Positions 1,692 through 63,917 of a stretch of DNA of 64,000 nt are shown piece after piece. The stretch's first letter is position 1. Every line of letters starts with the position of its first letter. The stretch is from a virus: IMG/VR virus record IMGVR_UViG_3300010413_000015, positions 1-64,000 of that record, one strand, 5' to 3'. The notes under the pieces are model-generated. The model saw only the letters and a list, made by a program, of their open reading frames with translations. It had not been told where the DNA came from and did no database searches. The translations under genes and the position numbers were made by a program.

Positions 1692-2603
1692 ATGAATCCA
1701 ATTGCACAGGCGCTCTACCTGTACGACCGCCACCTAGACCGTGGCGGGGAACCCGTGACCCTGGACAAGCATGGGCCAGACCGGGGGACCGAATGCTTGC
1801 ACCCAAGCTCTCTGCTGCTTTGCGCTCGCAAGGCAGCCTACGACTTCTGGGCAGACGGAGGAAAGCTCAAGGAAGACCTGCCACATCCCAAGGAGCTCCT
1901 GCTAGACTTTCGTGTAGGATATCTGTTTGAGTGGTTTGTGGCGGAGGCCCTTCACTTTGCCAATGCCCTTATTGACTACCAGCCCTCCTTGAAGGTGGGG
2001 GACTGGTGCGGTAGTCCAGACCTAATTGTAGATGCCAACGTCCTAACCGACCAGAAAGATTCACCATGGTTGGTTGACGTCAAGACCGTTCGGTCTGCAG
2101 ACAGCAGTTTCCTGGCCACTCGAAGCAAGTTCCCCAAGGACCACAACTGTGCTCAGGTGGAGAAGTATGCACGAATGTGGGAGGAGCTGTACGGCACCCG
2201 CCCAAGACCCGTGCTGTTCTACGTGTTGCGCGGGACCATGGCATCGGAGCTATTCACCTGGGACATGCACCCTGAGGGCGACCTGTTGCCCATGGCATGG
2301 GTAGAGAATGAGTGGTGGAGCGGGTGGGACAGCTTTTCCGTCGGAAAAGACCGGTGGAACGAGGGCTTTGACCAGCGCATGCTCGAGTATGAGGGACAGC
2401 TGGAGAAGTTCAAGCGTAGCCAGATTCTTCCCCGAAGGCCTTGGCCCACACCTGACACTCACAATTTTCTGTGTGTGAGTGTGAACAAGGACCGTAAGAG
2501 GAAGATGGCAACGCCAAGGTGCCAGTACTTTGCGCAGTGCTGGGGTGTGGATAGTTGCGAGCCGTTCCAAAGTGGAACGTGGGGAAAGGGTTGGTGGGAG
2601 TGA
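1692..2603 (+). CDS. PD-(D/E)XK / Cas4-like exonuclease
   Basis: HPSSLLLC, GSPDL, LVDVKT, Q...Y motifs and C-terminal C...CQYFAQC cysteines. Confidence 0.75.
   Translation: MNPIAQALYLYDRHLDRGGEPVTLDKHGPDRGTECLHPSSLLLCARKAAYDFWADGGKLKEDLPHPKELLLDFRVGYLFEWFVAEALHFANALIDYQPSLKVGDWCGSPDLIVDANVLTDQKDSPWLVDVKTVRSADSSFLATRSKFPKDHNCAQVEKYARMWEELYGTRPRPVLFYVLRGTMASELFTWDMHPEGDLLPMAWVENEWWSGWDSFSVGKDRWNEGFDQRMLEYEGQLEKFKRSQILPRRPWPTPDTHNFLCVSVNKDRKRKMATPRCQYFAQCWGVDSCEPFQSGTWGKGWWE
2335..2347. repeat. dispersed palindrome TTTCCGWCGGAAA, copy 1
   Basis: TTTCCGTCGGAAA inside the nuclease gene (FSVGK). Confidence 0.95.
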
Positions 2604-3013
2604 TGCAAGTAGAAGAGATGGTGGCTGAAGTCAATGCGTTGCGTGGGGAGATTGCCCAACGCAATGCCATGAACCCCTATGCCTACACGCAAATCACCCA
2701 TGCCCGAGACCGTAGGCGACTGGCTCTACTGTGGGCCACAATCGCACCCGTCTTTCCTAGTGGTGAGTCAGGTCGGCAAGAGCGCCTGGAAGTGTTTTCC
2801 CTTCTGTTGGGCCGAAAGTTAGACACCTTCGTGACCAAGGACGGGGACCCATGCAGGAGCAATGGCCTGACCAATGGTGAGCTGCAGGGCATCCTTAACT
2901 GGCTGAATGGAGGGCGATTTGAAGCACTAAAGGTGCTCTCCTCGCTGCGCGATGCGTCAGATGCGTGGAAGCGGTACATTCCAGAACCAAATGTTGTGGA
3001 GGTGACGTGGTGA
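2603..3013 (+). CDS. hypothetical protein
   Basis: ORF coupled to upstream stop. Confidence 0.6.
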   Translation: MQVEEMVAEVNALRGEIAQRNAMNPYAYTQITHARDRRRLALLWATIAPVFPSGESGRQERLEVFSLLLGRKLDTFVTKDGDPCRSNGLTNGELQGILNWLNGGRFEALKVLSSLRDASDAWKRYIPEPNVVEVTW

Positions 3014-3381
3014 AGAACAAGCATGACCATAAACTGAGCGAGCGGTTGTACCACATGGCCGAGGGGGCTGGAGACACTCAGGCCACACTGCTCCTGATGG
3101 GCGCCGGAAAGCTGATTGAAGTCAGGAAAGATACTGAGTCTTCCCTGGTGCAAAATGCCACCCAGCATCTAGGGGTACTTGCCACCTTTGCATGTGCTTC
3201 TAACCCCGATTTCGTCCATGAGGTTGGTTATGAGTCTGTCTCCCTGGCCTACATGCTGTTACAGATGGACCTGGACTTTCTTAGGGGCCTACTGGGGTGC
3301 ATAGACGGCCTGCTTCTCGTAGCTGCCCTTCAGGAGGAAATGGCCAAAAACAAAGAGGCTGACGAGGACAAGGAATCATGA
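3010..3381 (+). CDS. hypothetical protein
   Basis: GTGA overlap, GGAGG upstream. Confidence 0.6.
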   Translation: MKNKHDHKLSERLYHMAEGAGDTQATLLLMGAGKLIEVRKDTESSLVQNATQHLGVLATFACASNPDFVHEVGYESVSLAYMLLQMDLDFLRGLLGCIDGLLLVAALQEEMAKNKEADEDKES

Positions 3382-4375: not shown

Positions 4376-4438
4376 TATCATAGGACAACGTAGACAAAGG
4401 TGGTTTTAGCTGAATGAGCATGCGGGAAAGGAGCCAGC

Positions 4439-5248
4439 ATGGGGAAAGAGACAAGGATTGAGTACTGCGATTCTACCATCAATCCAGTGGTAGGTTGTCC
4501 GGGCTGTGAGTTGTTCAGCGAGGATGCAGAGAAGAACCACTGCTACGCCGCAACTTTGGTGAGAAGGTGGGCAGGCTGGACCGGCTGGCCAGAGACGTTC
4601 CTCAAGCCTGCAATGTTTCCGGGCAGGTTGGAGAAGGCCATCGCATGGCCAGACCTCAGGGGCCAACCCCGCCCGGATAAGCCGTGGCTTGACGGGAGGA
4701 GGCGGGTCATCTTCGTCAATGACTTGGGGGACGGCTTTAGTCCAGCGTCTCCGCATCCGGATAAGTGGCTGTTGCCAGAGATGCTTGCTATGCGGGGTAC
4801 TCCCCACGTCTGGCTGTTCCTGAGTAAGTGGCCAGTCCACATGATGCGCTTCTTCGAAAAGTATCCAATGCCCCACAGGGCATGGCTTGGCACAACCATT
4901 ACCGGGCAGAACACGATAAACAGGGTATTTCCCTTGCTGATGGACATTACCTCACTCCCTAACCGGTGGTTGAGCATCGAGCCACTTCTTGGGCCAGTGA
5001 CCCTACCTAAGGAGGCCAAGGGCAAAATTGGGTGGGTCGCAGCAGGTGGAGAATCTGGACACAACGCAAGGCCCACCCATCCTGATTGGGCAAGGTCACT
5101 CCGTGACCAGTGCGCAGACATGGAGATCCCCTTCTTCTGGAAGCAATGGGGAGAATGGCACCCCACTGATGGAAAGGTGGGCCAGGCCCTGTCGGGCAAG
5201 GCCATAGATGGAAAAGAGCATACAGAAATGTTCAAGGAGGCAAAATGA
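4439..5248 (+). CDS. phage Gp37/Gp68 (DUF5131) family protein
   Basis: TRIEYCDSTINPVVGC..C....CYA, IFVNDLGD, WLSIEPLLGP, WVAAGGESG, FFWKQWG. Confidence 0.92.
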   Translation: MGKETRIEYCDSTINPVVGCPGCELFSEDAEKNHCYAATLVRRWAGWTGWPETFLKPAMFPGRLEKAIAWPDLRGQPRPDKPWLDGRRRVIFVNDLGDGFSPASPHPDKWLLPEMLAMRGTPHVWLFLSKWPVHMMRFFEKYPMPHRAWLGTTITGQNTINRVFPLLMDITSLPNRWLSIEPLLGPVTLPKEAKGKIGWVAAGGESGHNARPTHPDWARSLRDQCADMEIPFFWKQWGEWHPTDGKVGQALSGKAIDGKEHTEMFKEAK

Positions 5249-5722: not shown

Positions 5723-6424
5723 ATGCTTATTACGGATGAGGTGCTAGGCAACTTTGCTGCATGTAACGAGGCCAGAACCAAGTTCAGGACACGGTACCCA
5801 CTCGGAATTGACATTGGGGACCTGTGGGGAGAGTGGGAAGTTGCCAGCAAACTGTGGAGGAAACTCCTTGAAGACACCTTCCTGCGTGCCTACATACACT
5901 GGGCTATGCAGGCCGGCCTTCTACCAATTAGAGTCCGAGCCAACCTGAATGGCCTCAGCATGGCCCACGCCGACCTTCGACGGGCCAATATGTCCGGATT
6001 AAACATGGATAAGGTTAACCTAATTGCCGCCGCTCTTGGAGGAACGCTTCTGCATGACTCAAGTCTGAGGAATGCAAAGCTCGTCTGGGCCCAACTGTCT
6101 TACGCGAGGCTTATGGCTGCCGACCTGAGTGGGGCTAGCCTGCATGGGGCCAGCCTGGTCCATGCCGACCTGAGTGGGGTCAGTTTGAAGGGGGCCAGCC
6201 TGGTCCATGCCGACCTAAGCCATGCCGAGCTGTACACGGCCAACCTGAGTGGGGCGGACCTGACCGAGGCCAGGCTGTACGGGGCCAACCTGAATTGGGC
6301 CAACCTGGAGGGGGCTAACCTGGAAGGGGCTAACCTGGTCGGTGCCAACCTGCAGGGGGCCAGGACAGAGGGGGCCAAACTGAAGGGTATCATCCTTACT
6401 GGAGCGCAATCTTATGGGAAATGA
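5723..6424 (+). CDS. pentapeptide repeat protein
   Basis: Many A(N/D)LxG repeats; GGAGG RBS before ATG 5723. Confidence 0.92.
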
Positions 6425-6778: not shown

Positions 6779-6779
6779 C

Positions 6780-9496: not shown

Positions 9497-9509
9497 TTTC
9501 CGTCGGAAA
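9497..9509. repeat. dispersed palindrome copy 2
   Basis: TTTCCGTCGGAAA, intergenic, abutting the RBS of ORF 9523. Confidence 0.95.
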
Positions 9510-9885: not shown

Positions 9886-10038
9886 GTGGTAGAATTAACG
9901 GAGGAGCGGAAGGAAGAGCTCCGAAAAAAGGCAGAGGAGGACTACCTGGAGATGTGTAACAACAGGCGCTCTCGGCCTCCGGCAAAGAAGCGGCCGGCCA
10001 AGAAGAAGTCGCAGCCAGCGAAGAAGAAGAGCAAGTAG
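9886..10038 (+). CDS. 50-aa protein with Lys-rich PAKK-repeat tail
   Basis: GGAGG RBS + GTG; MVELTEERKEELRKKAEEDYLEMCNNRRSRPPAKKRPAKKKSQPAKKKSK. Confidence 0.55.
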   Translation: MVELTEERKEELRKKAEEDYLEMCNNRRSRPPAKKRPAKKKSQPAKKKSK

Positions 10039-10197
10039 CAACCGAACCATGCAGCCAGGCAAAACGAGGATGAGAGCCGGACTGTACGCAAGGGTAAGCA
10101 ACGAGGAGCAAGCGGAAGGATACTCTAGAGGTCGTGCTACCGGTAGGCCACTGAGACCGCTTGCTGATGACACGTGGCAAAACGGGCCTATCGGCCC

Positions 10198-10226
10198 TTG
10201 ACCGCGAACCGAATCCGTGGTAGAAT
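10198..10226 (+). promoter_or_regulatory. sigma70-type promoter
   Basis: TTGACC-N17-TAGAAT with TG extension, intergenic. Confidence 0.7.
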
Positions 10227-10274
10227 CATGAAGGCGCCGCCAGGCGCCTTCGTCATCTTCCACAGGAGAGAACC

Positions 10275-10526
10275 ATGAAAGTACATGCCAACAACGAAGG
10301 GGCCCTTGTCGCCAAGTATCGTGACTGGGATGGAAACGGAGGTGAGATTACCATTAACAACATGATTCAAGAAGTCACACTAAGTGCCATCTGTCTCACA
10401 GAGGAGCAGGTGAACAGCCTAGAGAAGGCCAATGGCCAATCCAACAGGCTGATTTACGAGATGTTCCCCCATCTGCAAGAGGCAGAATGGTTCCGGAGAG
10501 GGGGTGTCATCTATGTGGACGGTTGA
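10275..10526 (+). CDS. hypothetical protein
   Basis: AGGAG RBS, 83 aa. Confidence 0.6.
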   Translation: MKVHANNEGALVAKYRDWDGNGGEITINNMIQEVTLSAICLTEEQVNSLEKANGQSNRLIYEMFPHLQEAEWFRRGGVIYVDG

Positions 10527-10767
10527 CACACACGAAACACTCCAGTCGATTGCGCGAGAGCGTGCGCTGGAGATTTGGGATGGGGCCTACCAGGTAGGAA
10601 TCATCCTCAATTTGCAGACGAGCTTTGCATTGAATCCAGCAGAGGCAAGTCTGCTATTTGACGGGACGCTCACTGTCCCCGAGCTGTTAGAAGGATTTGG
10701 ATGGTGCCGCAAGGGAATGCCCAAGAGGATTATCTTGCCACCCATACTACACGAGGAGACGTTGTAG
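10513..10767 (+). CDS. hypothetical protein
   Basis: Overlapping operon-like ORF. Confidence 0.5.
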   Translation: MWTVDTHETLQSIARERALEIWDGAYQVGIILNLQTSFALNPAEASLLFDGTLTVPELLEGFGWCRKGMPKRIILPPILHEETL

Positions 10768-10934
10768 TGTTTGTATTTGACAGGGAGACCGAACAGAAAA
10801 GCAGGGACCTGCAGCGGGAGCTGCGGAGCTCAAAGCAATCATGGTTCATGGCCATCGATATTCGATGGCTAATCCTGGTTGCCATTAACCTGTCTGTTGG
10901 GATCGCTGTACTTCTAATGCTGGGGAACAGATAG
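10767..10934 (+). CDS. small membrane protein
   Basis: C-terminal hydrophobic helix; GAGGAG RBS. Confidence 0.45.
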   Translation: MFVFDRETEQKSRDLQRELRSSKQSWFMAIDIRWLILVAINLSVGIAVLLMLGNR

Positions 10935-11596
10935 TGAAACGCACCCGTAGATTTGAGGAGAGCCTGGCTCTCCAGTCGAAACTGGAATCGCGGAAGAGGA
11001 CACCAGACTACCTAGGGAACATGTTCGTCATTTTTGGCATTGCCCTAAGTGCCGGCCTGGTCGTCCTCGTCGGCGTGCGCCTGGTCACCTGGGCCCTGAG
11101 TTGGGACGCCTGGGTGCACAAGCTCATGGCCGGCCTTGCAATTCTAGGTACCCTGGCCTGGTGGTCCTGGCGTGCATTTCGGGACAGCCTCATCTTGACT
11201 ATTGAGGAGACCTTCTATGCAGACATGAACAACGATGGTCAGATTGGGGTGTCTCATAACTATGAGGTACACACAGGGCCAACTCGCCAGGTCCGCGTGA
11301 TTGGTCCACCCCCAGAGGTTCTCTTGGAGTGGGCAGATGCCGCAGTGAACGGGGGGTCTTTGGCCTATCGCCTATGGGCGCCCAGGTTCACTACACCTGG
11401 CAGAAACGATGGCGTGGAAATGTACTCCCGGTGGCGGAGTGGCCTGGTCCGTATGGGATACGCCGAGGAAAAGGGCACACACTCTATTTCGCTAACAGAG
11501 GAAGGGATTCGGTTCTTTAGCGGTGTCCTGGAGGCGGGGATTGAAGACCCCACTCCCCTACTGGAAGGACTCGGGCGCAAAATGCTACCTGGATAG
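10934..11596 (+). CDS. two-TM membrane protein with cytoplasmic domain
   Basis: Two hydrophobic helices, DMNNDGQIG loop, wHTH-like C-terminus (LTEEG). Confidence 0.65.
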   Translation: MKRTRRFEESLALQSKLESRKRTPDYLGNMFVIFGIALSAGLVVLVGVRLVTWALSWDAWVHKLMAGLAILGTLAWWSWRAFRDSLILTIEETFYADMNNDGQIGVSHNYEVHTGPTRQVRVIGPPPEVLLEWADAAVNGGSLAYRLWAPRFTTPGRNDGVEMYSRWRSGLVRMGYAEEKGTHSISLTEEGIRFFSGVLEAGIEDPTPLLEGLGRKMLPG

Positions 11597-12981: not shown

Positions 12982-13275
12982 CTATTTGAGGGAGGCCCCA
13001 TTCACTGCAGTAAGGAACTTCTTGAATAGGTCGTAGTACCCCGATACGGCCAGGGCACCACCCAAGCCAATGAGAGTCACCCGAATCCAGGGTAGCGCTA
13101 CCGCAGGAATCAAGCCCTCAATAATGGCCTGGGACAGGCCTACCAGGAGGAACCCCAAAAGAAGGGATTCTAGCAACAGCCAGTTGCCTGCCAGACCAAA
13201 CTTCTTGCTGGTCTCCACAAGCCCTGGCACCAGCAGGAGTATCGCATACTCCCCGAGCACACTCAGGTCAATCAT
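12982..13275 (-). CDS. putative holin
   Basis: 97 aa, three hydrophobic segments, LAVSGYYD motif and basic C-terminus; last gene of the late operon. Confidence 0.6.
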   Translation of the reverse strand: MIDLSVLGEYAILLLVPGLVETSKKFGLAGNWLLLESLLLGFLLVGLSQAIIEGLIPAVALPWIRVTLIGLGGALAVSGYYDLFKKFLTAVNGASLK

Positions 13276-14209
13276 CGTTTACCTCCCTGTCTCTTTTTTT
13301 TCTGAGCTGGACCTCACCGAGCCAGAAATCCCAGTCGGTGAAGTCTATGGGGAACCAGTATTTGTATCCCCTACGGATAACCGCAAATCCCCGAATCCAC
13401 TTGGGGTGAGTGGTTGTCCCATTCACCATCATGTAGTATCTTCGGGTAGGGTCCGTGCCATGGCCAATCTCGCCGGCAACGTGCTTGCCGTCTTTCGTAA
13501 ACGTCATGCTCATGTGGTGGGTATGCCCACTCAGGGTGTCCATGCCCTCGATCTCCGCCCTCTCTTGAGGCAAAGACCCTCGGACCTTGCGGTACTGTGC
13601 CGGGTGTTCTACCAACGTTTCTTTTCCGTCGGAAACTACGTGGCACCATTTGTATTCTGAGACCACCAGCTTCCCGTGCCTCCCCCATAGAAGCTGAAGC
13701 AGCCTCAGAAACTCAAGCTCTTTCTTTCGCGTGGCTCTCTGTTCGTGGTTCCCCTTGATGTAGTAGATGGTGTCAAACCACTCAAACAGGGCCGTAATCA
13801 CCGCCTCTCCACTGACCAGCTCGTCGATGAGTGATGGGTAGTCTTCCTCTCGGGGAAAGGGGCTGAAGGCATCGTTTGCCAGGAAGTCCCCCGCAATTAG
13901 CAGAGACTTGATGCCCAGCTTCATTCCCATGGCCACAGCATAGGAAACTACCTCTTCGTCATGGTATGGCACTTCTAGGTCAGCGATGACTACGACATCT
14001 CCCTCGATGACCAGATGGTCTAGGTACTGCGGTTCCGTGCTCTTGACTCTCATATTAGGCCAGTACTCCAGCTTCCCCTCCCTCCAGAGTTGGAGTCTCC
14101 ACTCTTTCACGGTTGTGTGCGACATACCATACTTCTCTGACAACTGGGGGGTCTCAAGAGTTTCTGCATCCTTGAGAAAGTCGTGCACGAGCTCGCCTGG
14201 TATCGCCAT
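13268..14209 (-). CDS. calcineurin-like metallophosphoesterase with N-terminal HTH
   Basis: ADLEVPYHD, AGDF, GNHE, EH, GHTH motifs. Confidence 0.85.
   Translation of the reverse strand: MAIPGELVHDFLKDAETLETPQLSEKYGMSHTTVKEWRLQLWREGKLEYWPNMRVKSTEPQYLDHLVIEGDVVVIADLEVPYHDEEVVSYAVAMGMKLGIKSLLIAGDFLANDAFSPFPREEDYPSLIDELVSGEAVITALFEWFDTIYYIKGNHEQRATRKKELEFLRLLQLLWGRHGKLVVSEYKWCHVVSDGKETLVEHPAQYRKVRGSLPQERAEIEGMDTLSGHTHHMSMTFTKDGKHVAGEIGHGTDPTRRYYMMVNGTTTHPKWIRGFAVIRRGYKYWFPIDFTDWDFWLGEVQLRKKRDREVNDD
13623..13635. repeat. dispersed palindrome copy 3
   Basis: TTTCCGTCGGAAA inside the phosphoesterase gene (VSDGK). Confidence 0.95.
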
Positions 14210-14616: not shown

Positions 14617-17600
14617 CTACGTCACGAATATCGCCGGGCACGGTAAGCTGATTGCACCAGGGCTTCCCGTTTTCGCTACTTGAACGTACAGCATAAACTC
14701 CGACGCGGCAGTTAGCGATGTGCTGAGTCCCGTGCTCGAGTACATGTTCCAGGCATCGGCACTCATTGCAGATGTGTCGAAGCTCAACCTATTAGTTCCA
14801 GACCCATTTTTGAGGTTGATGGTCCAGTAGTTGCTAGCGTTGTTTGTTGTATCCACCCAAACGGCCTGGTGCCAAGACCGGATTGTCATATCACGCGAGA
14901 TGGTCCCGGCGTAAGGACGTCCGCCATTCGTGGTCATTTGATACGCAACGAGCGCATAGTTCCCGAAAGGGAACCAACCACTCATTCCCACATTGGACTG
15001 AACCATTCCAGCATCAGGGTCAACGTCAGTTGCGCCAGCATAGATTCCACCATTCAGGATGATGTCATTATCATACCCTGCCCCAAGTGAGCCCACACGG
15101 AGACCTGCCTGAACCAGGGCATAACCTTGAGCAGGGTCCGTTGTCCCACCCACTGTGAGTCCCCCGGCAATCGTGACGTCATTATCTGGCGGGTCATTCG
15201 TGGTGTCGCCAACTCGCAATCCGGCTCCAGCATATAGGTCGGTTGCCGTATGTATCTTTATGGTCGTTTGCTCGACCGCCAAGACGTCAGATGCGCCGAC
15301 CCAGAGTGTGATTCGGTCTGTAGTGCCAGACTCAATCTGGAGATAATTAGAAGTGGCCCCACTAACAGCCCGCAAGAATACTCTGGCATCCCCGGTGGTC
15401 AACGTGCTCTCTAGGTACAGGTCTGCGATGCTAGAGCCATATGCTGTCCAGATGCCACCATAGTAGGTAGCACCGTCGTACCACGTTACCTTGTTTGCCC
15501 TTGCGGTGCCTGTGGCAAAGGTGAGGCCCAACGCATTCAGTTCGATAGCACCAGCGCCACACACTAGAGAACCGTCTGTGTCAATGTATAGTTGAACCGT
15601 ACCAGTCCCTGCCCTAAACTTCAATTGGCCTGTAGACCCACCACCATCAGCATCCCACCACATATTTGCATGACCAGATCCTGTTTGTCCAAAGATGGCA
15701 TCACCAGTTAAGCCTTCCAGCTTTATGATATCCGTACCACCCTTGCGCAAGAGCAGGTCGCCAGGGTCTGCGTCCCAAAAGAGGTTGGCCTTGCTAGCGT
15801 TATACTCGCCAAACCTTACATCTCCATCAGCTTGAAGTACGAGAGTGGCTACGCTGTTGTTGTACAAGCTGATAGTTGTCCCGCTGAGGTCGATGTATGC
15901 ACTGGTCGTAGAGTAAATCTTTAGGCCGCTTCCATCCCACAGGAGTTTACCGGCTGAAGCATTTCCTAGAAATAGGCGGGGTGTCCCGGCGTTGTACTCT
16001 AGCCAGTAGCCCGTGCCGGAATCGTAGGCCGTCGCCCCACATTTGAGGACCGCGCCTGTGGACATCGTAAGTGTGTTGTCCACAGTCAGTGCACCCGTGC
16101 TTGCGCTTACTGCCGCCAGGTTCGTGACGTCGATTTTCTCGGCAGTTACAGCATCAGCGGTCAGTTGGTCCGTGTCTACGGTTCCAGTCTGGATATTGCC
16201 ACCGTTGATGTTCGTCACGCCTGAGCCGTCTCCGGCGATGACCAGGCCGTTTGTCGGGTCATACTTGAGATAGTCGCCACCGGAGTAGTTTCCAATGGCC
16301 ATGCCCCAGGTCTCCGTAGAGTAGGGACCCCATCCATTTAGGTCACCCAGGCGGACAAGTTCTGTCTGCTGGTTGTACGAGGTACCCTGGCGTATCATTG
16401 AGATTCGCGGTCCACCTGTCTGTGCGTCGAGCTCTACCCTGCCGTCCCCATCATAGCCAAGATTCACCCATACATGTCCCTGTGGCCAGGCATTGGCCCC
16501 GCTACCATCCAGGTTCCTGGTCACGGTGTAGATCGTGCCAGAGACAAAGGCCGTGACTTGCATGTATTCCACCTGGTTGTTGCCACGAAGCAGAATGAAA
16601 TCGTTCACGGTGAGTGAGCTACCAAAGTCGATGTCTGTCTCAGTGTCGTCTACATCCTCGGCCAGGGTACCAGATGAGTGCGGAACGATGAACCAGCCAC
16701 CCATAACAGATGCGGTATTTTCCACAAACAGGATAGCTTCCATCTCGGACAACCAGCCTTTCCGCCACAGGAGGGTTGAACTCCCTAGGTCATAGGTATC
16801 CGTTAGTAGGGGAATTAGATGCGAGTCAACTTTTCCGACGGAAAAGTTGCCGGAGACAGTGAGGTGCTGCAGAGTGAGTAGCCCGGCCGCTGTCGTAGCC
16901 AGAATGCTAGCCGTCGCACCGGGGCTGTTGCTGGAGTCGATGGCATGCACATGGGTGGCCCTAGAGAATGACGTGCCAGTGCCCTCAGTGTTAGAACTGC
17001 TCACTGAGAGGTTTGTGCTTGGCGCTGCGGTACCAATTCCGTGTGTGTGGTCCCGACGAGCGGCAACAGAGGCGCTGCCTGTAGCAGACGAAGACGTGCC
17101 GGCAGCTATCGTTGTCGGTAGCGTTGTGTCAAAGACTACGAGTGTAGCATCCGAGCGAATCATGGTCTGGGCAGAACCTTCAGCATAGGCGGTGCCCAGC
17201 GAGATTGTTGGCGCTGCAATCAGGCTATCAATCTGTGTCCAGGCCAGGTCTCCTGTATGGTCAGTGCCAGAGAGGGTGTGCTGCTGGTTATGGTGGTCAT
17301 TGGCCGAGACATCAGCAATGCTGTCATGGCTGATGTTGGCCTGGTTGATAGTGAAGGTCAGTATGTTTGTGCCTGCCACAATGCTGAGAATGTTGTTGGC
17401 ACTTGTAAGTTGTATCCTGTCATCTGCAGCCGGAGTAACTGCCGTTGCGCTTGTGTCTTCAAGGCCTACAAAGCCGGCATGATGCTGGTCAGCGCTCACA
17501 CTCCCAAGGTCAGTGTGCGACAGTTGCTGAAATGCTGCGGTGGTGGCTCCGGTGGCCCTCAGTACCTGTCCGGCCGTCAATCCACTAACAGTGTGGTAGG

Positions 17601-24039: not shown

Positions 24040-27000
24040 AATCCCCCCCTCATTCTCTGCCTGGAGGCAGTCTTGTTCAGCTCTGCCTCAAACTTCCTCC
24101 ATATCTCGGCCGCCAGTTGTCTCTCGTCCTGCCTCCCTCCTTCAACCGAGATAGAGACGTTCATATTTCCGACGGAAAATCCGCTTGCGGTCAGCCTGCG
24201 GAGTGCCATGTTGGGGACAATGGTCCCATTCTGGTCTGGAACGAAAATCTCTGGTCCCACTTCACCCACCAGGTAACTACTCCCGGCTGTGACATCCCCC
24301 CCACCAGCCAGGCTGTTCCCGCTTCCACCTCCATCCCCTTGAGACTGGAACATACGGTTCAGGCGGTTCTCGATGCGGTCCAGAAGGTTCTGCCAGGCCT
24401 TGTCAAGGCTCGAATCCCTCTTGACGCTGCTCTCGAAGTGACCAATTAGGGTGTCCCACTTGCCCCAGAGGTCTCCGTCTTTCGAGAAATCGCTGAGCTG
24501 CTGCCTCAGGAAGGCAGCATAGGCATCTTGGGTCAGGTCCTGCAACCGCTGGTGCTCTATCTGGCCAGGGAAGACCACTTCCTCGAAGTACTTCTGTTCC
24601 TGGGTCATTTGGGCCAGGCGATACATCATATCGTCCTCAGCAATCTCTTGCTGTTTCGCGGCAATCGCCTGCTGCATCGCCGCCATAGCCTCTGCTTCTC
24701 CCATTTGCTCCTGGAGGTGCTTCATTTGCAGTGCAAACGACTCATCCATGTGCTTCTTGGAAAGGTCGAAGTTCTCCTGCATGTGTCGCTTCTGGAGCTC
24801 ATAGTTCTGCGTCATGTGCTCCTTCTGCATCTCAAACTGCTCGGTCTCTAGACGCTTGATATCTTCGTAGTGTGATTCCTGGTCTTTGAATGCCTGCGCC
24901 TGTTGGGCCCACAGCTTCTCCTGTCGCCCTTCCTCAACACCCCTACGCTTCTCAGAGACACCATAGTCCTCTTCCATACGTCCCCGCTGGCGGAGAAGCT
25001 CCTGCTTCTCGCGCCCGGAGGCGAAGCGAATGGCCCGGTTGATATCTTCCATCCCACGGGTGTACTGCACCCCAGCCTGTTGCCGGTTGAACGCCATATC
25101 TTCACGGCCCCAGCGCTGGCCCTGCATCATCTGTTGCCATTGAACACCGAACTGCCTTCTCTGGAACTCGGTGTTGACACCCCACATTCTCTGGCCTAGG
25201 GCAAAAGACGCTTGCTGTTGGGCATAGCCCTGCTCCAGGCTCTCCGTCCCTTGCTGGAAACCAAGGTTCAGCCGTTCCTGGCCCTGGCGATACTGAAGGC
25301 GAGCGCTCTCCATGGCTCGCTCAATACCGGCCCTCTGCTGTTGCGCTGCCATTGCCGCAGCCGCAGCCTGCATTCCGTACAGCTCTCGGGACTGTTCTAG
25401 CTTCAGTTCCGCTCGCTGGATTTGGCCTATCATGCCCATCTGGTAGGTTCTGCCACCATAGCTAGAGGTTGCCCACTGGCCAGTGCCCATGCGGTATGCC
25501 TGGCTCTGGCGTAGTTGGTTCCAGGACAGCGCCCTTGAAGCAAGCTGGCCTATGCCGTAGATACCACCACCAGGCCCTATCTCGTGTAAGGGCATAGCCC
25601 CCTCCACCAGGGGCATCCCCATAGCACTACGGAACCCACCTACGGCCCCCTGTGCCTCTGCGCCAAAGACCCCTTGGGCCGCACTGTATCCCAGGGCAGA
25701 GCTGGCAAAGTTGGCCATCTCCCCAAACTGGGCGTACTCGAAGGGAGTCATCTGTCCAGAGGCTAGTGCTGCCTGCAGGCCCTGCTCAAACTGCCCGGCT
25801 ACTGCCCCGGCCATGCCAAACCCTCTGGCCACAGCTCCTTGGCCCATTACAGACTGGGCCCATACCTGGCGAGCTGCAGGAGAAACGCCACGGGCTGCCA
25901 TTGCCTGAACCCGGCCCTGCAGGGCTCGGGCATTTCCGCCGAGGTACTGGTAGATTTGACCCCCAAGGCCGGCCGCAGCCTCATATTGGGCCATTCCCTG
26001 AGCGCTTTGCCATGGAGCATTGGCCATGAACCCTATGGCTTCTGGACTTCCTGCCGCAAAGCCATACTCTTGTGCCGCACCAACGCCAATGGCTGCCTGT
26101 TCCCTCCGAAGCATCTGCTCTGGGGTTACACCCGGAGGGGTATAGATGACTCGCCCGTCAGGGAGCTCAACCATTTGGCCTTCAAGTTCCTGCTGTAGCC
26201 CCTGATAGTATCGGGCCGCAGCCTCTGGACCAAGGCCGCGCATGTCTGCGAATGTGCGATACTGGCTGGCAATCTGTGCCGTGGCTCCACCAACTGCTGC
26301 GGTCTGAGGACCAAGTGTTTGCCCGATTCTCTGAGCTACTGCACTACCAGGTGTATACCCCATGGCAGAGACAATGGGCTGCATGCCATACCGGGCCTCT
26401 TGAAGAGCTGCAAGCTGGGTGGTTGTGACCCCACCAGCAAGCTGGCCCATGTACTGCTGTAGCATTTGTCCTGATACTCCAACTCCTATCTGTTGGAGTT
26501 GTCCTGCAACCCCTGAGGCCATGAGGAAGTTCTGTTGCCCGGCTGCTGTTGTTGGGATGTAGGGAGACAGGGCCCACATCCCTGCGCCCGTCCCGATCCC
26601 CAGATACTGGCTTACTTGCTTTAGGGTAGAGGCCATCCCGGGAAGCTGCCCACTAATGGCTGCTGGCCCGAGCTGCTTGGCCAGCTCATCTACTCTTCCT
26701 TCGTACACGGCCTTTGGCCCGTATCCGAGCTCGGCCAGATAGCTGAAGGTTTCGTACTTCTTTGCTGGGTCTAGACCTGGAATATCCAGGTTTTCGATGT
26801 GGAGGCTGGCCCGGTCAATCTCTATCTGGCCAGACTTCACATACTGCGCAACACCCTCGCGCAGTTGGCCTGCGTAGTCCTTGTCCAGAATCGAGCGCAA
26901 GCCCATGCCAACCCCTGTCCCAAGAGAGAGGTCGCCCTTGGTAGGCGAGCCCCCACCAGCCATGCCCTTGAGCCAGCTAAAGGCACCTCTCTGCGTCTCA

Positions 27001-32953: not shown

Positions 32954-32966
32954 TTTCCGACGGAAA
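32954..32966. repeat. dispersed palindrome copy 6
   Basis: TTTCCGACGGAAA just after the tail tube stop; an 11-bp stem hairpin lies next to it (32893-32940). Confidence 0.95.
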
Positions 32967-37871: not shown

Positions 37872-38828
37872 CTAGCCCATTGTCGCTGGCATCTTAAAGT
37901 TGTCCATGCGTCGTGTGAGCTCTCGGATCTGGTCGTACATGTCGTTCACACTCGGCGTGGGCTGGAGCTGGCCTCCATGCTGTCGCTGGACATCTGGGTC
38001 GTTCAGGAGCCGGAAATACGTAGCCTCGATTTCCGTTTGCTCGTTCAGGGGAAGCTCGTCAAAGGCCTTAGACCCCATAGCCTCCATTGCTTTCAGGAAC
38101 TCCTGATACACACCTTGCGCACCTCCTGGTGCACCGGGTGGCAAAGCACTCCCTGGACCTGTACCTTCCAGCAGGCGCGTTTGCGCCTCATCCTGGGCCT
38201 GCCCCTTCAGCGTGGCAAGCTTCTCGATGACTGCCTCTATCTCTGCCCGTTGGGCCTGGTCGTTCACGGTATTGTCGGGGTTGATGGATGGCTTGATGAC
38301 CTTGATACGGTCAGCAAATAGGTTAAGGGGCAACCCGTGTCCCTTGGCCCCGGGCTTTGTGTACTCCTCAAGAAGCATGTCTCGATACTGCTCTGCTCGC
38401 TTCTGTTCAAGTGCCACTGTCAAAGGGTCTAGCGATTGTCCTTGTGCATTTCCGTCGGAAACTGGGGCCGGGGCCGGGGCCTGCGGAGTTTTTCCTCCCC
38501 CCTCCGGGGCCGGGGCCTGCGGTGCGGCAAGCTTGCTAAGAATCTCGCCTACTTGCTGTTTGAGCGTAGCGAACTCGCCATCCAGCACCTGTCGGGCCTG
38601 CGTCATTTCGTTGACCTTCCGGTCAAGACCCTGGCGCCGAGCCTCAGATTGCTCGTACAGGGCCTTGTAGTCCGGCTGTCCGGGCCCACTGCCTATGGCT
38701 TCGCCAAGGGTGGGCAACGTCCTAGTGTCCGGACCATGCGGTTGGGCCGAGGTCGCCTGCGGGGCCTGTTGTGGCACCCCGGAGCTATCCCCGGAACCTG
38801 CTGGCTGCGGAACTGTGTCTGGCATCAT
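37872..38828 (-). CDS. capsid scaffolding protein
   Basis: Pro/Ala/Gln-rich with coiled coil (DYKALYEQ...RQGLDRK), directly upstream of capsid gene. Confidence 0.65.
   Translation of the reverse strand: MMPDTVPQPAGSGDSSGVPQQAPQATSAQPHGPDTRTLPTLGEAIGSGPGQPDYKALYEQSEARRQGLDRKVNEMTQARQVLDGEFATLKQQVGEILSKLAAPQAPAPEGGGKTPQAPAPAPVSDGNAQGQSLDPLTVALEQKRAEQYRDMLLEEYTKPGAKGHGLPLNLFADRIKVIKPSINPDNTVNDQAQRAEIEAVIEKLATLKGQAQDEAQTRLLEGTGPGSALPPGAPGGAQGVYQEFLKAMEAMGSKAFDELPLNEQTEIEATYFRLLNDPDVQRQHGGQLQPTPSVNDMYDQIRELTRRMDNFKMPATMG
38449..38461. repeat. dispersed palindrome copy 7
   Basis: TTTCCGTCGGAAA inside the scaffold gene (VSDGN). Confidence 0.95.
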
Positions 38829-46260: not shown

Positions 46261-46527
46261 CTAGCGATTATCACGGACTTCACGTGGGCCCCTTTCCTCT
46301 CTAGCGGCTTCTTGCACTGGCAGAATCCCGTCGTAGAAGAGCACTTTCACCGTACTCATCCCTAAATCTGAGTGCCCCAGCTCAATAAGCCGCATTTTGA
46401 CCAACAGCCACCAGTGTTGGTCCCAGTATTCCATGACTTCCGGTCCCAGGTGTTTCCCTGACCACCGATAGATGGCCAGCCAGAATTTCCGACGGAAACG
46501 GACCCAGGTTTCACGCATCCTTTCCAT
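46261..46527 (-). CDS. hypothetical protein
   Basis: 88 aa, GGAG RBS. Confidence 0.5.
   Translation of the reverse strand: MERMRETWVRFRRKFWLAIYRWSGKHLGPEVMEYWDQHWWLLVKMRLIELGHSDLGMSTVKVLFYDGILPVQEAAREERGPREVRDNR
46486..46498. repeat. dispersed palindrome copy 8
   Basis: TTTCCGACGGAAA, read FRRK in the 88-aa ORF. Confidence 0.95.
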
Positions 46528-48764: not shown

Positions 48765-48960
48765 TGGCACCCTCCACAGGCAACATGCTATCCGGGCTCC
48801 AGGCGCTAGAATCCATTGGCACCCAAGAATCATCCCCACCAATGGTTATTGTGTACCCTGGCTTCGCTATGTACCTTGGGACCGATTCTTCTAGCAATCG
48901 GTTCAGCTTCTTGAGCTCCCGCAGAATGTCTTCCAGAATCTGGTGTTCTAGTCTAGCCAT
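48751..48960 (-). CDS. hypothetical protein
   Basis: 69 aa, overlap-coupled on both sides. Confidence 0.45.
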   Translation of the reverse strand: MARLEHQILEDILRELKKLNRLLEESVPRYIAKPGYTITIGGDDSWVPMDSSAWSPDSMLPVEGASDKS

Positions 48961-53102: not shown

Positions 53103-53359
53103 TACTTCTTCCTTTTCCCTGCTGTGCGAGGGGCCCAGCGTGTGTCCAGCCCCTCCTTCCAGGTCTCTTCGTCCATCCAGTGAGGTTGAAACAGCGGCTC
53201 ACTCTCTGACCAGGTGCAGGAAAGGCAGGCACCTGCCCAGGTGCCGGACTCACTCCCGCAGTTAGGGCAGGTGACAAACCCCTGGTCGTTGGTGAAGAAC
53301 TTAGGCTTGGCTCTCTTTTTTTCCGACGGAAACCCTAGAGTCATACAGAAACGCTCCAC
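53102..53359 (-). CDS. zinc-ribbon protein
   Basis: CPNCG...CLSC. Confidence 0.5.
   Translation of the reverse strand: MERFCMTLGFPSEKKRAKPKFFTNDQGFVTCPNCGSESGTWAGACLSCTWSESEPLFQPHWMDEETWKEGLDTRWAPRTAGKRKK
53320..53332. repeat. dispersed palindrome copy 9
   Basis: TTTCCGACGGAAA, read FPSEK. Confidence 0.95.
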
Positions 53360-58033: not shown

Positions 58034-58046
58034 TTTCCGACGGAAA
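58034..58046. repeat. dispersed palindrome copy 10
   Basis: TTTCCGACGGAAA, intergenic downstream of putative terS. Confidence 0.95.
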
Positions 58047-58066: not shown

Positions 58067-58594
58067 TTACTGGACATTGACGACAATCTCCCCATCCTCT
58101 ACCTCTATCTCCTGAGTGACTTGGCGCAACTTCAGGCGTTTCCCCTGATGCCCCATGACCGCATCAATAATCCGACGAGCATCAGAACTCCCCCCCACCC
58201 CGCTAGACTGACTATCTCGTTCTAGGTCCATCTTCACATCACGGAGAAACCTCGCCGCCTGAACCGCTTCCTTACTATCGCCAGACGTGGCGATATTCGA
58301 CATGTTCACAAGGACCCGTACCCACCAGGTAGATAGGACCTCCGATGCTATCGCATCAAGGCCACGCATTTCGGAAAGAATTGCCTCCTGGATAAGAGGG
58401 TTCTTGATGCTGTCATAGAACACCTGGCGAGAGACATTCGCCTTCTCGCAGGCTGCCTTGATGTTCGTTGCCCCCTCCTGAAAGGCAGCACGCACCGCTA
58501 AGACACGGTCCCAGTCACGTTGGTCCTTTGGAGTGAGCAGGACGGTCTCCTTCTCTACTGCCTCTGCTGGGATGATTTCCACACTCTTGTTCAT
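58067..58594 (-). CDS. putative terminase small subunit (HTH protein)
   Basis: NIKAACEKANVSRQVFY HTH followed by NP and A..GD...V.AARF helical motif typical of TerS-like proteins. Confidence 0.6.
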   Translation of the reverse strand: MNKSVEIIPAEAVEKETVLLTPKDQRDWDRVLAVRAAFQEGATNIKAACEKANVSRQVFYDSIKNPLIQEAILSEMRGLDAIASEVLSTWWVRVLVNMSNIATSGDSKEAVQAARFLRDVKMDLERDSQSSGVGGSSDARRIIDAVMGHQGKRLKLRQVTQEIEVEDGEIVVNVQ

Positions 58595-59236: not shown

Positions 59237-59249
59237 TTTCCGACGGAAA
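59237..59249. repeat. dispersed palindrome copy 11
   Basis: TTTCCGACGGAAA, intergenic. Confidence 0.95.
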
Positions 59250-59280: not shown

Positions 59281-59472
59281 ATGAAGCTGGGACGGAAAGT
59301 GATTACCACGCAGGTTGACGCGCCCGGCAAGACGTTGGAGGACATTGGGGTCCAGAAGCAGGCCATAAGGAAATGCGGGAGCCGGTGCAGCTCCTGCAAC
59401 AGGGTCTGCAACTTCCGGGACCCCAGCCAGCCCCTGCCCAAGGGGGGCACAGGGTTCGGCTTCCGGCTCTAG
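59281..59472 (+). CDS. small Cys-rich protein
   Basis: AAGGAGG RBS; C...C..C...C. Confidence 0.55.
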   Translation: MKLGRKVITTQVDAPGKTLEDIGVQKQAIRKCGSRCSSCNRVCNFRDPSQPLPKGGTGFGFRL

Positions 59473-60140: not shown

Positions 60141-60159
60141 TCACTGCCTGTCGGCGCCT

Positions 60160-61175: not shown

Positions 61176-61589
61176 GTGGCAGACTACCTCATCAGGTTTG
61201 ACGGTGGTTCTAGGGGAAACGGAACCGACAACGCTGAGGGCTATGGCTCCTACAGCATCGAGGCGGCTGATGGCCGCAAGGTCCTGCAACGCCTTGATTT
61301 CGGGACCGGCGTGACCAACAACGAGGCCGAGTACCGGGCGCTCCAGGCAGCCGTGGTAGACCTCCACGGCCGCATCAGCAAGGTGTCTAGCCCGGCCAAC
61401 TTCTCCCTGGTTATTCAGGGAGACTCGAGCCTGGTCATCAACCAGCTTCAGGTGACCAAGCCGTGGAAGTGCAAGGCCCCAAACCTCATCCAGTACCGCA
61501 ATTTCGTGCGGGACCTTCTGGCCACCTTTGGCAGCGTCTCCCTTCAGCATGTGGGAAGGGACGCAATGGTTGCAGAGTTCGGTCATTAG
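61176..61589 (+). CDS. ribonuclease HI-family protein
   Basis: FDGGSRGN, TNNEAEYRAL, GDSSLVINQ, WKCK. Confidence 0.88.
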   Translation: MADYLIRFDGGSRGNGTDNAEGYGSYSIEAADGRKVLQRLDFGTGVTNNEAEYRALQAAVVDLHGRISKVSSPANFSLVIQGDSSLVINQLQVTKPWKCKAPNLIQYRNFVRDLLATFGSVSLQHVGRDAMVAEFGH

Positions 61590-61613
61590 AGAGGGCTGTG
61601 GCTCTCTCTTTTT
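61588..61613 (+). terminator. intrinsic terminator
   Basis: AGAGAGGGC-TGTG-GCTCTCTCT followed by a T run. Confidence 0.65.
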
Positions 61614-61718
61614 CTGTCCCCCCTGTAGGGGGACGATCCTTACCGGGTACCTCCATACCCGGGCGCGACAGGACGCCTTCCTGTCAGAGAACTAAGCTTC
61701 AAATGGAAGGAGGGCCAG

Positions 61719-63917
61719 ATGAAGCTCGCCGTTCTCGCAATTCTCACCCTGGTGTGGGAGGGGACCGTGCCGTACCTCCACACACTCTACGAGGCTCTCG
61801 TGGGAGAGCCTCTGGCAGTAGTCCAGGTCAGCACCAAGCCCAAGCACCGCCAGTGGATGACACGCCTGCTGGTAGGGCTTCAGGACAAGGGGTGGCACCT
61901 GGACTTTGCCACAAGTGCCAGAAAGAGCGGACAGGCCATCATTTCCCAGACTGGGAAAGTGTCCTCGCTCTTCTGGCGCACGGCTGAGGAGGCCATTGCC
62001 TATGGCAGTATCCTTCTCACGCCGTGCTGGGGTGCGTACCCCCAGTCCATGACCCTGAAGGTTCGGGTGGTGGAGGATGGGGAGTACGACACCGGGGATT
62101 GCCACGGCAAGGCGAGCCGGGCAGTCTATGCCGCCCTTGGTGGTGTTGTGCAACAGGCCGCACAGTTCCGCCTAGGGGTCCTGGCCGGTGGCTTGCTGGC
62201 CAAGGGCACATTCTGCATCCCAGATGTGTCCCTCGCCTGGCCAGACGGGGTAGACCTGATTCTGCCCCGGAGCTGCTTCAAGAGCAGCAACAAGCCTGGC
62301 CCTGGCACGTATACCTGGGACCTGGTCCTGGGTGTCGTGAACTGGAGCAAGCCCACCCCGACCAAGATGGGCTGGCAGATGCTCCAGTGGTTCAGTTGGG
62401 CAGCGGTAGAGGCCGACATCCTTCCCAGGGTCAAGGAGGGAGCAGCCCAACTGGTTGCCGCCCTGGCAGATGTCAGGGCACTTGCCGAGCTTCTCCGGCT
62501 ATACTCTGTGCCCAGCATCGACACAGAGGACGGGGAAGATGACCAGGCCGAGGTCTTGCTCATCGACGTTCTCCGAGCAGACCACAGTGGCTACCTGTCC
62601 CGGCACCCACACGTAGTTCGGCGGGTGAGCGACATGCTGCGCCGACGGTGGCAGCACCTCGCAACCGGTGGTGGGCAGTTCCTGACCGGCCTTATGGGGC
62701 TACCGGATGACACCCTGCCATTCGGGGTGGTGGCCACCAGCGACATCCCTGTCGGAGATGTCCTTGTGACCCGGTATCCCATCAGGTTCTGGGGTGACGT
62801 TCGGAAATGGGTCAACGTCGCGCCCGTCCAGAGCCTCAAGGGCACCATCTGGATGTCCCATGAGACCGCTGCCGTGCTGGGTGGCGATTTCGACGGGGAC
62901 TACTTCCAGGTGGTTCCGTCAGCCACCTATCCCGCCCTGTCCCAGGACATGGAGAACTGGGCCGACCGCCCCACTGTGAATGTGGTCAAGGTCAAGGATA
63001 GGAGGGCCACCCCCCTGAGTGCCCAGGGGCTGGCCGAGGTCTTTATGAGCAATGTGGACAACATGGTGGGTAATGTGGCCCTGCTCATTGCCCGTGCTGG
63101 CGCTGCCGGCAACCATAACGCAGTTGTCCAACTTGCCCAGGAGTTGCAGGTCGCCGTTGACAAGTTCAAGTTCAACGTAGACAACGACACCGACTTCATT
63201 GATGCCTGCAACACGTCCATTCCAGACCTCACATGGGCATGGGACCGTGAACACCGCGATGCCTACCATGCCCGGCCGATGAAAGTGCACGAGCGGGATA
63301 TGGACACCATATCCTGCCTCATCCGGGAGGTCAATGCCCTGTGGGTTCCTTACCAGGGTATGGCCCTTCCCCTATGGCACTTCACCGGCCTGTTCTCCAA
63401 GCCCGACCAGCACATGGATGCAGCTCGTGGGCTGGCAGTGAGGTATGCTGCCAATGTGCGCACGGCTCTCCGTGCCGGGGACAAGAAGGCCATCTCTAAG
63501 CTCTTCAAATCCCTGGAGGCGTGGTCGCGGCAGGTGGAGAATCCGACCGAGTGGGCTGCTGCCATCTGGCATGCGGTTCACGCGGAGAATGCCAAGGGCA
63601 CCGGCTCGCTGGCCTTTGCTGCGTTTCCGACGGAAATTGCAGAGAGGGTGGCCAGCCTGCCGTCCACCCCCGAGGCACCGCGCAATGCCACCATTGTTGG
63701 CCTGGAGAAGAACGAGTGGGCCAACAACGCGAACGACCTGGTAGGTGAGCAGCAGGTGATGTTCGATATCACCACGTTGCATGGCCAGGTCCGGTTCTCC
63801 GCCGTGGTAGACGGGCGGGTGGTCGGCATTGTCTCCAAAGAGACCCCTGTCCCCCAGGGGACATTCACCATGGGTCTCACGGTAAAGGGCGCTTGCGTGT
63901 ACGCGAGTGCCTCCTAG
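61719..63917 (+). CDS. single-subunit two-barrel RNA polymerase (YonO / cellular RdRP-like)
   Basis: TGDCHGK, QFR...AKGT, LILPRSCFK, RYP (aa ~352), GGDFDGD (aa ~390), QVAVDKFK. Confidence 0.85.
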   Translation: MKLAVLAILTLVWEGTVPYLHTLYEALVGEPLAVVQVSTKPKHRQWMTRLLVGLQDKGWHLDFATSARKSGQAIISQTGKVSSLFWRTAEEAIAYGSILLTPCWGAYPQSMTLKVRVVEDGEYDTGDCHGKASRAVYAALGGVVQQAAQFRLGVLAGGLLAKGTFCIPDVSLAWPDGVDLILPRSCFKSSNKPGPGTYTWDLVLGVVNWSKPTPTKMGWQMLQWFSWAAVEADILPRVKEGAAQLVAALADVRALAELLRLYSVPSIDTEDGEDDQAEVLLIDVLRADHSGYLSRHPHVVRRVSDMLRRRWQHLATGGGQFLTGLMGLPDDTLPFGVVATSDIPVGDVLVTRYPIRFWGDVRKWVNVAPVQSLKGTIWMSHETAAVLGGDFDGDYFQVVPSATYPALSQDMENWADRPTVNVVKVKDRRATPLSAQGLAEVFMSNVDNMVGNVALLIARAGAAGNHNAVVQLAQELQVAVDKFKFNVDNDTDFIDACNTSIPDLTWAWDREHRDAYHARPMKVHERDMDTISCLIREVNALWVPYQGMALPLWHFTGLFSKPDQHMDAARGLAVRYAANVRTALRAGDKKAISKLFKSLEAWSRQVENPTEWAAAIWHAVHAENAKGTGSLAFAAFPTEIAERVASLPSTPEAPRNATIVGLEKNEWANNANDLVGEQQVMFDITTLHGQVRFSAVVDGRVVGIVSKETPVPQGTFTMGLTVKGACVYASAS
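63624..63636. repeat. dispersed palindrome copy 12
   Basis: TTTCCGACGGAAA inside the RNAP gene (FPTEI). Confidence 0.95.

Follow-up and report, generated by a model that had tools for sequence, protein, structure and literature searches.

The DNA analysed here (the window) is the first 64 kb of a virus record in IMG/VR (IMGVR_UViG_3300010413_000015; 74,951 bp, estimated to be 86% complete), which we call G0. Relatives are labelled G1 and G2, and single contigs of this phage and its relatives carry L numbers. The window holds genes for tail proteins, a portal protein, a putative large terminase, a helix-turn-helix (HTH) protein and a YonO-like protein, and along its whole length is dispersed the subject of this report, the 13-bp palindrome TTTCCGWCGGAAA. 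An earlier note, made from the letters of the window, had listed twelve exact copies of this word, and all of them were found at the coordinates it gave (Table 1). When the count was extended to the remainder of the record, two further exact copies appeared (at 68408 and 72736), giving 14 in 74,951 bp. The density of the word is about one per 2-5 kb.

The number of copies is far above chance, as had been claimed. Dinucleotide shuffles contained no copy, and Markov models of orders 1-5 predicted 0.0007-0.014 sites (at most 0.015) when the sites were left in the training data and <0.001 when they were masked, so that a higher-order model, which the earlier note had named as a way in which its inference could fail, does not explain the count. 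There are no one-mismatch variants in G0, and the single two-mismatch match (at 12471) is at chance level. Half-sites at alternative spacer lengths are absent from G0, and lone half-sites are not enriched there. The central base is A or T in all copies of G0 and of its complete relative G1 (60/60), and no consistent rule was found by which a central A or T would serve as a strand mark. Outside the 13-mer there is neither sequence conservation nor a directional flank, and the statement that C never precedes the word is broken at site 68408. Contigs from four public sequencing runs covered five of the sites, and no variant was seen inside them.

The word is two-fold symmetric and the array spans the whole genome, both as first described, and its spacing is even. 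The coefficient of variation of the distance between sites is 0.38 in G0 and 0.69 in G1, in each case more even than random placement (P=0.0005 and P=0.005, respectively).

Conservation and dialects among relatives

Searches of 50,697 records of isolated phages by megablast and tblastn, for which 20 kb of DNA and the HTH, portal and putative large-terminase proteins served as queries, gave no match, and a portal profile search of bacterial genomes found no prophage relatives. Portal homologs with 41-62% identity were retrieved from metagenomes. The complete relative G1 (87,059 bp) has a portal 55% identical to that of G0, and the two phages have only about 20 detectable genes in common, at 26-55% amino-acid identity. 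It carries 46 exact copies of TTTCCGWCGGAAA, with no one-mismatch and three two-mismatch matches, and the word is mostly widened there to a 15-bp palindrome, A-TTTCCGWCGGAAA-T. Conservation in related phages, on which the earlier inference had hung, is seen in G1, and elsewhere it takes the form of dialects and shared positions. Two intragenic sites of G1 are perfect in the short contigs L051 and L044, where the flanks are 74-80% identical; this, and the presence of sites in both coding and non-coding sequence, bears out the claim that the constraint is on the DNA. Relatives aside, scans of other viral contigs for the word gave single chance matches only, scans with two of the dialect words brought nothing new, and the word was not found in the literature.

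The dialects seen among relatives are TTTCCG-S-CGGAAA, TTTCCG-GG-CGGAAA, GGTCCCCATGGGGACC and single variants of the form TTTCC…GGAAA. In L063/L064 the words are TTTCCG-G-CGGAAA and TTTCCG-GG-CGGAAA, and in G2 there are seven copies of GGTCCCCATGGGGACC and four copies of half-site variants. Short contigs hold single words (TTTCCA-C-TGGAAA, TTTCCC-A-GGGAAA, TTTCCA-TGGAAA and TTTCTT-A-AAGAAA). The half-sites of the G2-type variants vary independently of each other, which fits half-site reading by a dimer.

Two orthologous positions carry the dialect of the phage in which they are found. The first is a linker in a 317-aa (amino acid) protein (site 7), which reads APAP-VSDGN in G0, G1 and L044, and APAP-VSGGK, the S dialect, in L063 and L079. 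The second is the 3' end of the gene for a 175-aa HTH protein, where G0, G1 and L064 each have the local dialect. The open reading frame (ORF) of G1 ends in …ISDGN…, and the last codons of the L064 gene (F-P-G-G-N-stop) are the 14-mer dialect itself. The array is more ancient than the split between these phages, and it switches dialect without moving.

What the data show is that the array exists, is under selection as DNA, has even spacing, is conserved and switches dialect. Its even cover of the genome, and orthologous sites that have survived deep divergence with their dialect switched, point to selection on each site and to a specific reader. The tags are probably the means by which a DNA-binding protein reads the genome as a whole.

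Such a reader could be a host protein. Exact short words that exceed expectation by far, occur within and between genes in tolerated frames, and show even spacing and lineage dialects are known as HIP1 in cyanobacteria, as DNA uptake sequences and uptake signal sequences (DUS/USS), and as Chi. Those words run through whole cellular chromosomes, have 8-12 bp and are far more densely packed, whereas the present word has 13 bp, occurs once per 2-5 kb and has so far been seen only in phage contigs. If the array were the site of a host protein or a host signal (for uptake, Chi-like, or for a regulator), unrelated phages sharing a host would have converged on it and the dialects would track hosts. 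That would suit the identical word in two phages as distant as G0 and G1, and also the result of a quick portal tree, in which the W-type phages (A or T at the centre) fall into two separate clades with other dialects interleaved. The dialect groups differ in G+C content, and no phage HTH protein has a conspicuously conserved reading head, both of which also speak for a host-encoded reader. Switching of dialects in place fits a phage-encoded one equally well, however, and a search with the 15-mer gave, among the at least 120 matches to bacterial genomes listed, only single matches at chance level, which counts weakly against a host signal. The comparable repeat of Cluster O mycobacteriophages, described below, is absent from the genome of its host (PMC4351075). 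The ESM Atlas gave no hint as to the host. Overall, we regard reading by the host as unlikely.

Placement of the sites relative to genes

The sites of the window are listed in Table 1. Those at gene boundaries are more numerous than expected, both in G0 (6/14, against 2.5 expected; P=0.02) and in G1 (25/46, against 10.1 expected; P<0.0002). Many are wedged between a stop codon and the next Shine-Dalgarno sequence, and three lie at convergent junctions. Another 29 sites of G0 and G1 lie deep inside genes. The earlier note had read the intragenic sites in all three frames; more than one frame is indeed used, but use is strongly biased, and 21 of the 29 are in the frame xTT-TCC-GWC-GGA-AAx, which specifies x-S-(D/V)-G-(N/K). 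There is an excess of A over T at the centre on the sense strand because Asp is favoured over Val in this preferred frame. The giant late genes, which have no internal junctions, still hold sites every few kb, and the G1 ortholog of the giant gene with site 5 has a site 30 nt ahead of its own stop codon.

Table 1. Copies of the 13-bp palindrome in the window, and the gene of the candidate reader.
Feature	Coordinates	Strand	Centre	Context
Site 1	2335..2347		T	Inside Cas4-like PD-(D/E)xK nuclease gene 1692-2603 (+); reads FSVGK
Site 2	9497..9509		T	Intergenic; adjoins Shine-Dalgarno (AAAAGGAGA), 13 nt before ATG at 9523
Site 3	13623..13635		T	Inside metallophosphoesterase gene 13268-14209 (-); reads VSDGK; 4-aa insertion relative to G1 ortholog
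Site 4	16832..16844		A	Middle of 1648-aa structural gene 14617-19563 (-); reads FSVGK; indel adjoining
Site 5	24166..24178		A	Inside giant 2689-aa gene, 133 nt ahead of stop; reads FSVGN
Site 6	32954..32966		A	Intergenic, 6 nt past stop of tail-tube gene 32972-34003 (-)
Site 7	38449..38461		T	Inside 317-aa gene 37872-38825 (-); reads VSDGN; Pro/Ala-rich linker
Site 8	46486..46498		A	Gene boundary; 41 nt past stop of glycosyltransferase-like gene 46539-47615 (-); in first 42 nt of a small ORF
Site 9	53320..53332		A	Gene boundary; directly before, or within, the start of small zinc-ribbon gene
Site 10	58034..58046		A	Intergenic, convergent junction, 21 nt past stop of 175-aa HTH gene
Site 11	59237..59249		A	Intergenic, 31 nt upstream of ATG at 59281
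Site 12	63624..63636		A	Inside YonO-like RNA polymerase gene 61719-63917 (+); reads FPTEI (frame 0)
Candidate reader (inferred)	58067..58594	-		175 aa; N-terminal HTH, then long helices

About 10 of the 13 intragenic sites that could be compared with an ortholog coincide with indels or with variable segments or loops. For example, site 1 falls in a C-terminal part of the nuclease that is absent from the G1 ortholog. Such a distribution could arise if the words were recombination linkers at junctions, used for cassette exchange, or if the word propagated itself by biased repair or copying, in the manner of HIP1, and had no function at the single site. The all-or-none pattern, with no decaying copies, and the small G1 genes bracketed by sites would both be accounted for, and recombination genes (Sak4-like, SSB and Cas4-like) belong to the conserved core. 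Exchange between the repeats of Cluster O phages has produced indels (PMC4351075). Even spacing, and orthologous sites that are kept with their dialects switched, indicate instead selection at each site and a specific reader. A stretch of 13 bp is also short for homologous exchange, and we consider an origin of this kind highly improbable.

Another feature of the placement is that many sites of G1, G2, L064 and L066 adjoin a Shine-Dalgarno sequence 9-22 nt before a start codon. The word could then be a signal for an unusual RNA polymerase (a promoter or pause site, as in N4), or an RNA hairpin that acts in mRNA processing or as a translation operator 5' of the ribosome binding site. The phage does encode a YonO-like two-barrel polymerase and a giant protein with RxPT and GDxDxD motifs common to G1, and a hairpin loop would easily tolerate the 1- and 2-nt spacers that coexist in L064. 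Adjacency to the ribosome binding site is expected, however, where intergenic spacers just fit the word and a Shine-Dalgarno sequence, and the word itself is symmetric and has no directional flank. The 29 sites deep in genes, in either orientation, and those at convergent junctions would be misplaced for such signals, and the phage richest in sites, G1, lacks a YonO-like gene. Folded as RNA or single-stranded DNA, the 13-mer would give a hairpin of about -2 kcal/mol (z ~0), no better than shuffles. A promoter for a phage RNA polymerase, whether of the T7 type or an N4 hairpin, was rejected on the symmetry of the word, its undirected flanks, the sites deep in genes and the weak hairpin. An intrinsic terminator was also rejected: the stem TTTCC/GGAAA lacks a T run and folds weakly, and a terminator scan lists other sites. 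A G·T wobble test on the G2 variants gave contradictory results and leaves an RNA hairpin unsupported.

Transcription signals of a more usual kind are present. An extended -10-like 10-mer, GTGGTAGAAT, is over-represented (4 copies against 0.06 expected), with copies at window positions 1664, 9886, 10217 (+) and 56219 (-). The last of these pairs with TTGACG at a spacing of 17 nt, just upstream of a 43-kb late operon, and sigma-70-like promoters with the extended -10 word mark operon starts. Since these promoters are separate from it, the 13-mer is not needed as a promoter. A signal for the unusual RNA polymerases, or an RNA hairpin, appears quite unlikely.

Candidate readers and possible functions

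The relatives give an indication of the life style of these phages. G1 encodes a large serine recombinase (an intact 472-aa integrase), a DnaB-type helicase and a WYL regulator. The N-terminus of a serine recombinase is found in G2, and at 10070-10180 (+) of G0 are the first 37 residues of one, syntenic with and 49% identical to those of G1. The lineage is therefore temperate, and by this comparison G0 looks like an integrase-deletion derivative of it.

In the literature, the array has its closest counterpart in Cluster O mycobacteriophages, siphoviruses of about 70 kb with >30 copies of a 17-bp dyad repeat, TGTTCGG-N3-CCGAACA, that was described in 2015; no reader or function has been established for it, and its authors suggest a dimeric binding protein (PMC4351075). 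Both words have invariant inverted arms, an A/T-rich centre and no meaningful orientation (PMC4351075), both are seen in the narrow gaps between genes, close to gene starts and within genes, and in both cases methyl- and glycosyltransferase genes are found among the structural genes. The Cluster O word has 17 bp and a 3-nt centre, whereas the present one is a different word of 13 bp with a 1-nt centre. No kinship between the phages could be detected, as tblastn with the portal and the putative large terminase against the phage records was empty, and the present array is a separate, unrelated instance. It goes beyond Cluster O in its lineage dialects, in-place switching, even spacing and strong preference for one coding frame.

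Cluster A mycobacteriophages have stoperators, the sites of L5 gp71 and its relatives. These are also 13-bp sites, dispersed in 20-30 or more copies per genome and mostly at junctions (PMC6550527, PMC9283540), and their motifs differ by lineage and co-vary with the repressor (PMC6550527). The two arrays are alike in their lineage-specific motifs, in their temperate lineage, and in having sites at the locus of the repressor or its candidate. Stoperators, however, are asymmetric, follow the direction of transcription, and are the sites of a repressor that acts as a monomer and also recognises an operator on the early promoter (PMC9283540), whereas the present word is a palindrome, is not found in the divergent promoter regions beside the HTH and XRE genes described below, and is distinct from the operator of the XRE repressor candidate. 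Membership of the stoperators fails on the asymmetry of their sites; by analogy, the array may still work like them.

A word that is symmetric, perfectly kept, evenly spread and dialect-switching demands a reader with sequence specificity, one that evolves together with its sites. Our preferred but tentative reading is that the array consists of high-affinity sites for a two-fold symmetric DNA-binding protein of the phage, and acts as a set of genome-wide roadblocks or silencers. The 13-mers would be double-stranded DNA binding sites of a dimeric, sequence-specific protein, maintained as an even array over the genomes of a temperate-type siphovirus clade, and their co-evolution with the reader would give rise to the dialects. 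In the prophage state, transcription would meet a bound protein every 2-5 kb, at gene junctions as well as within the giant late genes, and would be stopped or insulated there. The effect would resemble that of stoperators, except that a symmetric site would work in both directions. A roadblock or silencer was chosen because, for dozens of exact 13-bp sites that co-vary with lineage in temperate siphoviruses, experiments have established one function only, that of stoperators (PMC6550527, PMC9283540). Our confidence is about one third, since we infer that a protein binds, which protein this is and what it does to transcription. A silencer as reader would make the array a symmetric, bidirectional counterpart of stoperators in another phage lineage. 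The dialects likely define immunity or compatibility groups among these uncultured phages.

The reader would be the 175-aa HTH protein, the gene of which ends in or next to a site. It is the best candidate, as the only clade-wide DNA-binding candidate with a fitting pattern: it is present in all four lineages examined (G0, G1, G2 and L064), with about 95 homologs, and in its recognition helix the two W-type phages have Y-D, the S-type has Y-H and the G2-type has R-T. The protein was modelled as a three-helix HTH head followed by long helices, with a mean predicted local distance difference test (pLDDT) score of 83. Its fold has no significant structural match in the PDB by Foldseek (best E 0.28, with TetR-like rows), in BFVD (best E 0.03) or in VIA (Z<=5.9), and a profile search of PDB sequences found nothing. 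In G0 the gene has its own sigma-70-like site upstream.

A classical, CI/Cro-like HTH gene of the XRE type is divergent from an early promoter in G0, G1 and G2. It adjoins the SSB gene (contig L012 5560-5760, equal to G0 65560-65760; G1 37430-37610), and opposite it is a strong sigma-70 promoter, TTGACA…TGGTAATCT, overlapped by the inverted repeat TGTCAA…TTGACA. The gene and this repeat look like a classical switch, separate from the 13-mer array. The XRE protein was rejected as the reader of the array, as it has this operator of its own and its recognition helix, in which G0 goes with G2 and not G1, fails to track the dialects.

Several observations weigh against genome-wide silencing by the 175-aa protein. 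The stoperators known so far have an asymmetric, oriented site to which a monomer binds (PMC9283540), and the authors of the Cluster O study thought a transcriptional role unlikely for their repeats (PMC4351075). Because XRE has a different operator, silencing through the array would take a second protein. No site is present in the divergent promoter regions beside the HTH and XRE genes; one divergent region of G1 has a site (at 28671). The enrichment of sites at gene boundaries can be explained by tolerance alone, and the W-type phages in two portal clades would fit a host-encoded reader as well. In the 175-aa protein itself, the HTH head shows no more conservation between the two W-type phages than does the remaining sequence, and there are weak signals of another function, that of a small terminase, all of them below significance.

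These signals comprise a PHROG match to terminase small subunit (E 0.02), several rows of terminase small subunits in BFVD, a Z of 5.5 to a T4-type gp16, and ESM neighbours that carry HTH_Tnp_1_2 and Terminase_5. Their recurrence suggests that the sites could be packaging or 'self' tags, read by a small-terminase-like HTH protein or by another packaging protein, in which the copy at the end of the HTH gene is a pac-type site and the dispersed copies mark phage DNA and exclude host DNA. The gene order lends itself to this idea. In four lineages the HTH gene shares its strand with the putative large terminase gene and is located upstream of it, in three lineages a site is at or in the 3' end of the HTH gene, and in G0 and G1 another is just upstream of the zinc-ribbon and terminase gene pair (site 9 and the terminase gene at 51225-53102 (-) in G0; a site 10 nt upstream of the equivalent small gene in G1). 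Even spacing would also suit a rule by which every fragment is tagged. In every lineage examined, however, oppositely oriented genes part the HTH gene from the putative large terminase gene, and the terminase operon of L064 has a promoter of its own. A palindrome of the 6-1-6 type would fit a dimer rather than neighbouring subunits of a terminase ring. The large-terminase assignment comes only from Walker A (GGRGxGKT) and Walker B (ADEA) motifs in the alignment consensus, an intein in G2, and position. We know of no precedent for dozens of pac sites, and tagging for packaging is, like reading by the host, an unlikely function. If it were to hold, it would be a new principle.

A broader and rather speculative idea is that the clade writes a co-evolving 'genome identity code', even in coding loops, by which its own DNA is told from that of the host or of rival phages, and that the word switches dialect in step with a reader encoded by the phage. 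It, too, seems unlikely. If true, the code could serve packaging, protection or exclusion, would be a principle of self-recognition new for phages, and would explain the Cluster O repeats.

The earlier note had linked the array to the ParB, KorB and Noc proteins. The operators of KorB in plasmid RK2, parS and the Noc-binding sites (NBS) are likewise short palindromes of 13-16 bp, scattered in at least a dozen copies, and they act at a distance (PMC11790492). A spreading or sliding protein of this or another type (for example, SlmA-like) might partition or condense the genome, or silence it from a distance. The word has the shape of a KorB operator (13 bp, TTT…AAA ends), its copies are dispersed and evenly spaced, and the KorB clamp silences over kilobase distances (PMC11790492); since G0 has lost its integrase, a plasmid-like prophage is conceivable. 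G1 does have an integrase, however, and six-frame searches of G0, G1 and G2 with hidden Markov models of ParB (PF02195) and KorB (PF08535) returned nothing at E<=1, although control genomes matched. The ParA model PF13614 (AAA_31, the only one tried) also found nothing in the three genomes. The note had recognised no ParB gene in the window, and the search of the whole record was equally empty; the proposed family link is not supported by these results. The known systems also belong to plasmids and chromosomes, not to phages. Membership of the ParB/KorB family fails on its defining protein, going by the profile searches, and partition or silencing by such a protein is very unlikely.

For the silencer array that we favour, or for any other function, the clade adds to the Cluster O case several dialects, orthologous sites switched in place, statistics for even coverage and a short list of DNA-binding candidates.

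Neighbouring genes

The ortholog of the putative large terminase in G2 (contig L010 8942-11188) contains an intein (Intein_splicing/HINT) at aa ~120-260, near the position of Walker A in the intein-free orthologs (aa ~122-131). A fold model of the putative large terminase had a mean pLDDT of 42 and was unusable. In three lineages, the gene for a small, Cys-rich zinc-ribbon protein of 70-80 aa (window 53102-53344 (-), G1 ~16393-16619 (-) and L064 3992-4201) is directly upstream of, and overlaps, the putative large terminase gene. By its position, the zinc-ribbon protein is a candidate for a small terminase or a packaging accessory.

In the region 61176-63917 (+) of the window is the gene for a 732-aa protein with a match to the Pfam family RdRP (PF05183; E 9.5e-10, above the cut-off) and a GGDFDGD motif; these features mark it as a YonO-like single-subunit RNA polymerase. 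An RNase H-like gene (61176-61589) comes before it. A YonO homolog is present in L064, and no YonO-like gene was found in the complete relative G1. The giant 2689-aa protein of the tail region (24030-32099 (-)) has the motif MIRFPT…GGDFDAD at about aa 812-864, which is kept in the 2638-aa ortholog of G1 as VVRYPT…QGDADGD. It also matches Pfam HHH_3 at aa 603-653, a domain that was not visible in the G1 ortholog by pairwise alignment.

Between the portal and putative large terminase genes (46539-50395 (-)) is a cluster of glycosyltransferase-like (RGP family), sulfotransferase-like and S-adenosylmethionine (SAM)-methyltransferase genes. A further glycosyltransferase is encoded in the tail region (34000-35190 (-)), and G1 has genes for UDP-glucose dehydrogenase and an epimerase. 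By analogy with Cluster O phages, the glycosyltransferase cluster probably reflects virion glycosylation.

The early region carries a gene for a YhhQ/Vut_1-like transporter (956-1648 (+); E 3e-08), which prompted a search for a DNA transglycosylase (TGT/DpdA), but PF01702 gave no match and the candidate was dropped. Other genes of this region include one for a DUF5131 (Gp37/Gp68) protein (4439-5248 (+); E 2e-53). Pentapeptide-repeat proteins are encoded at 5723-6424 (+) of the window and on L012 at 9958-10977 (G0 69958-70977), with Pfam E values of 1e-37 and 6e-48, and they are possible DNA mimics or anti-defence proteins.

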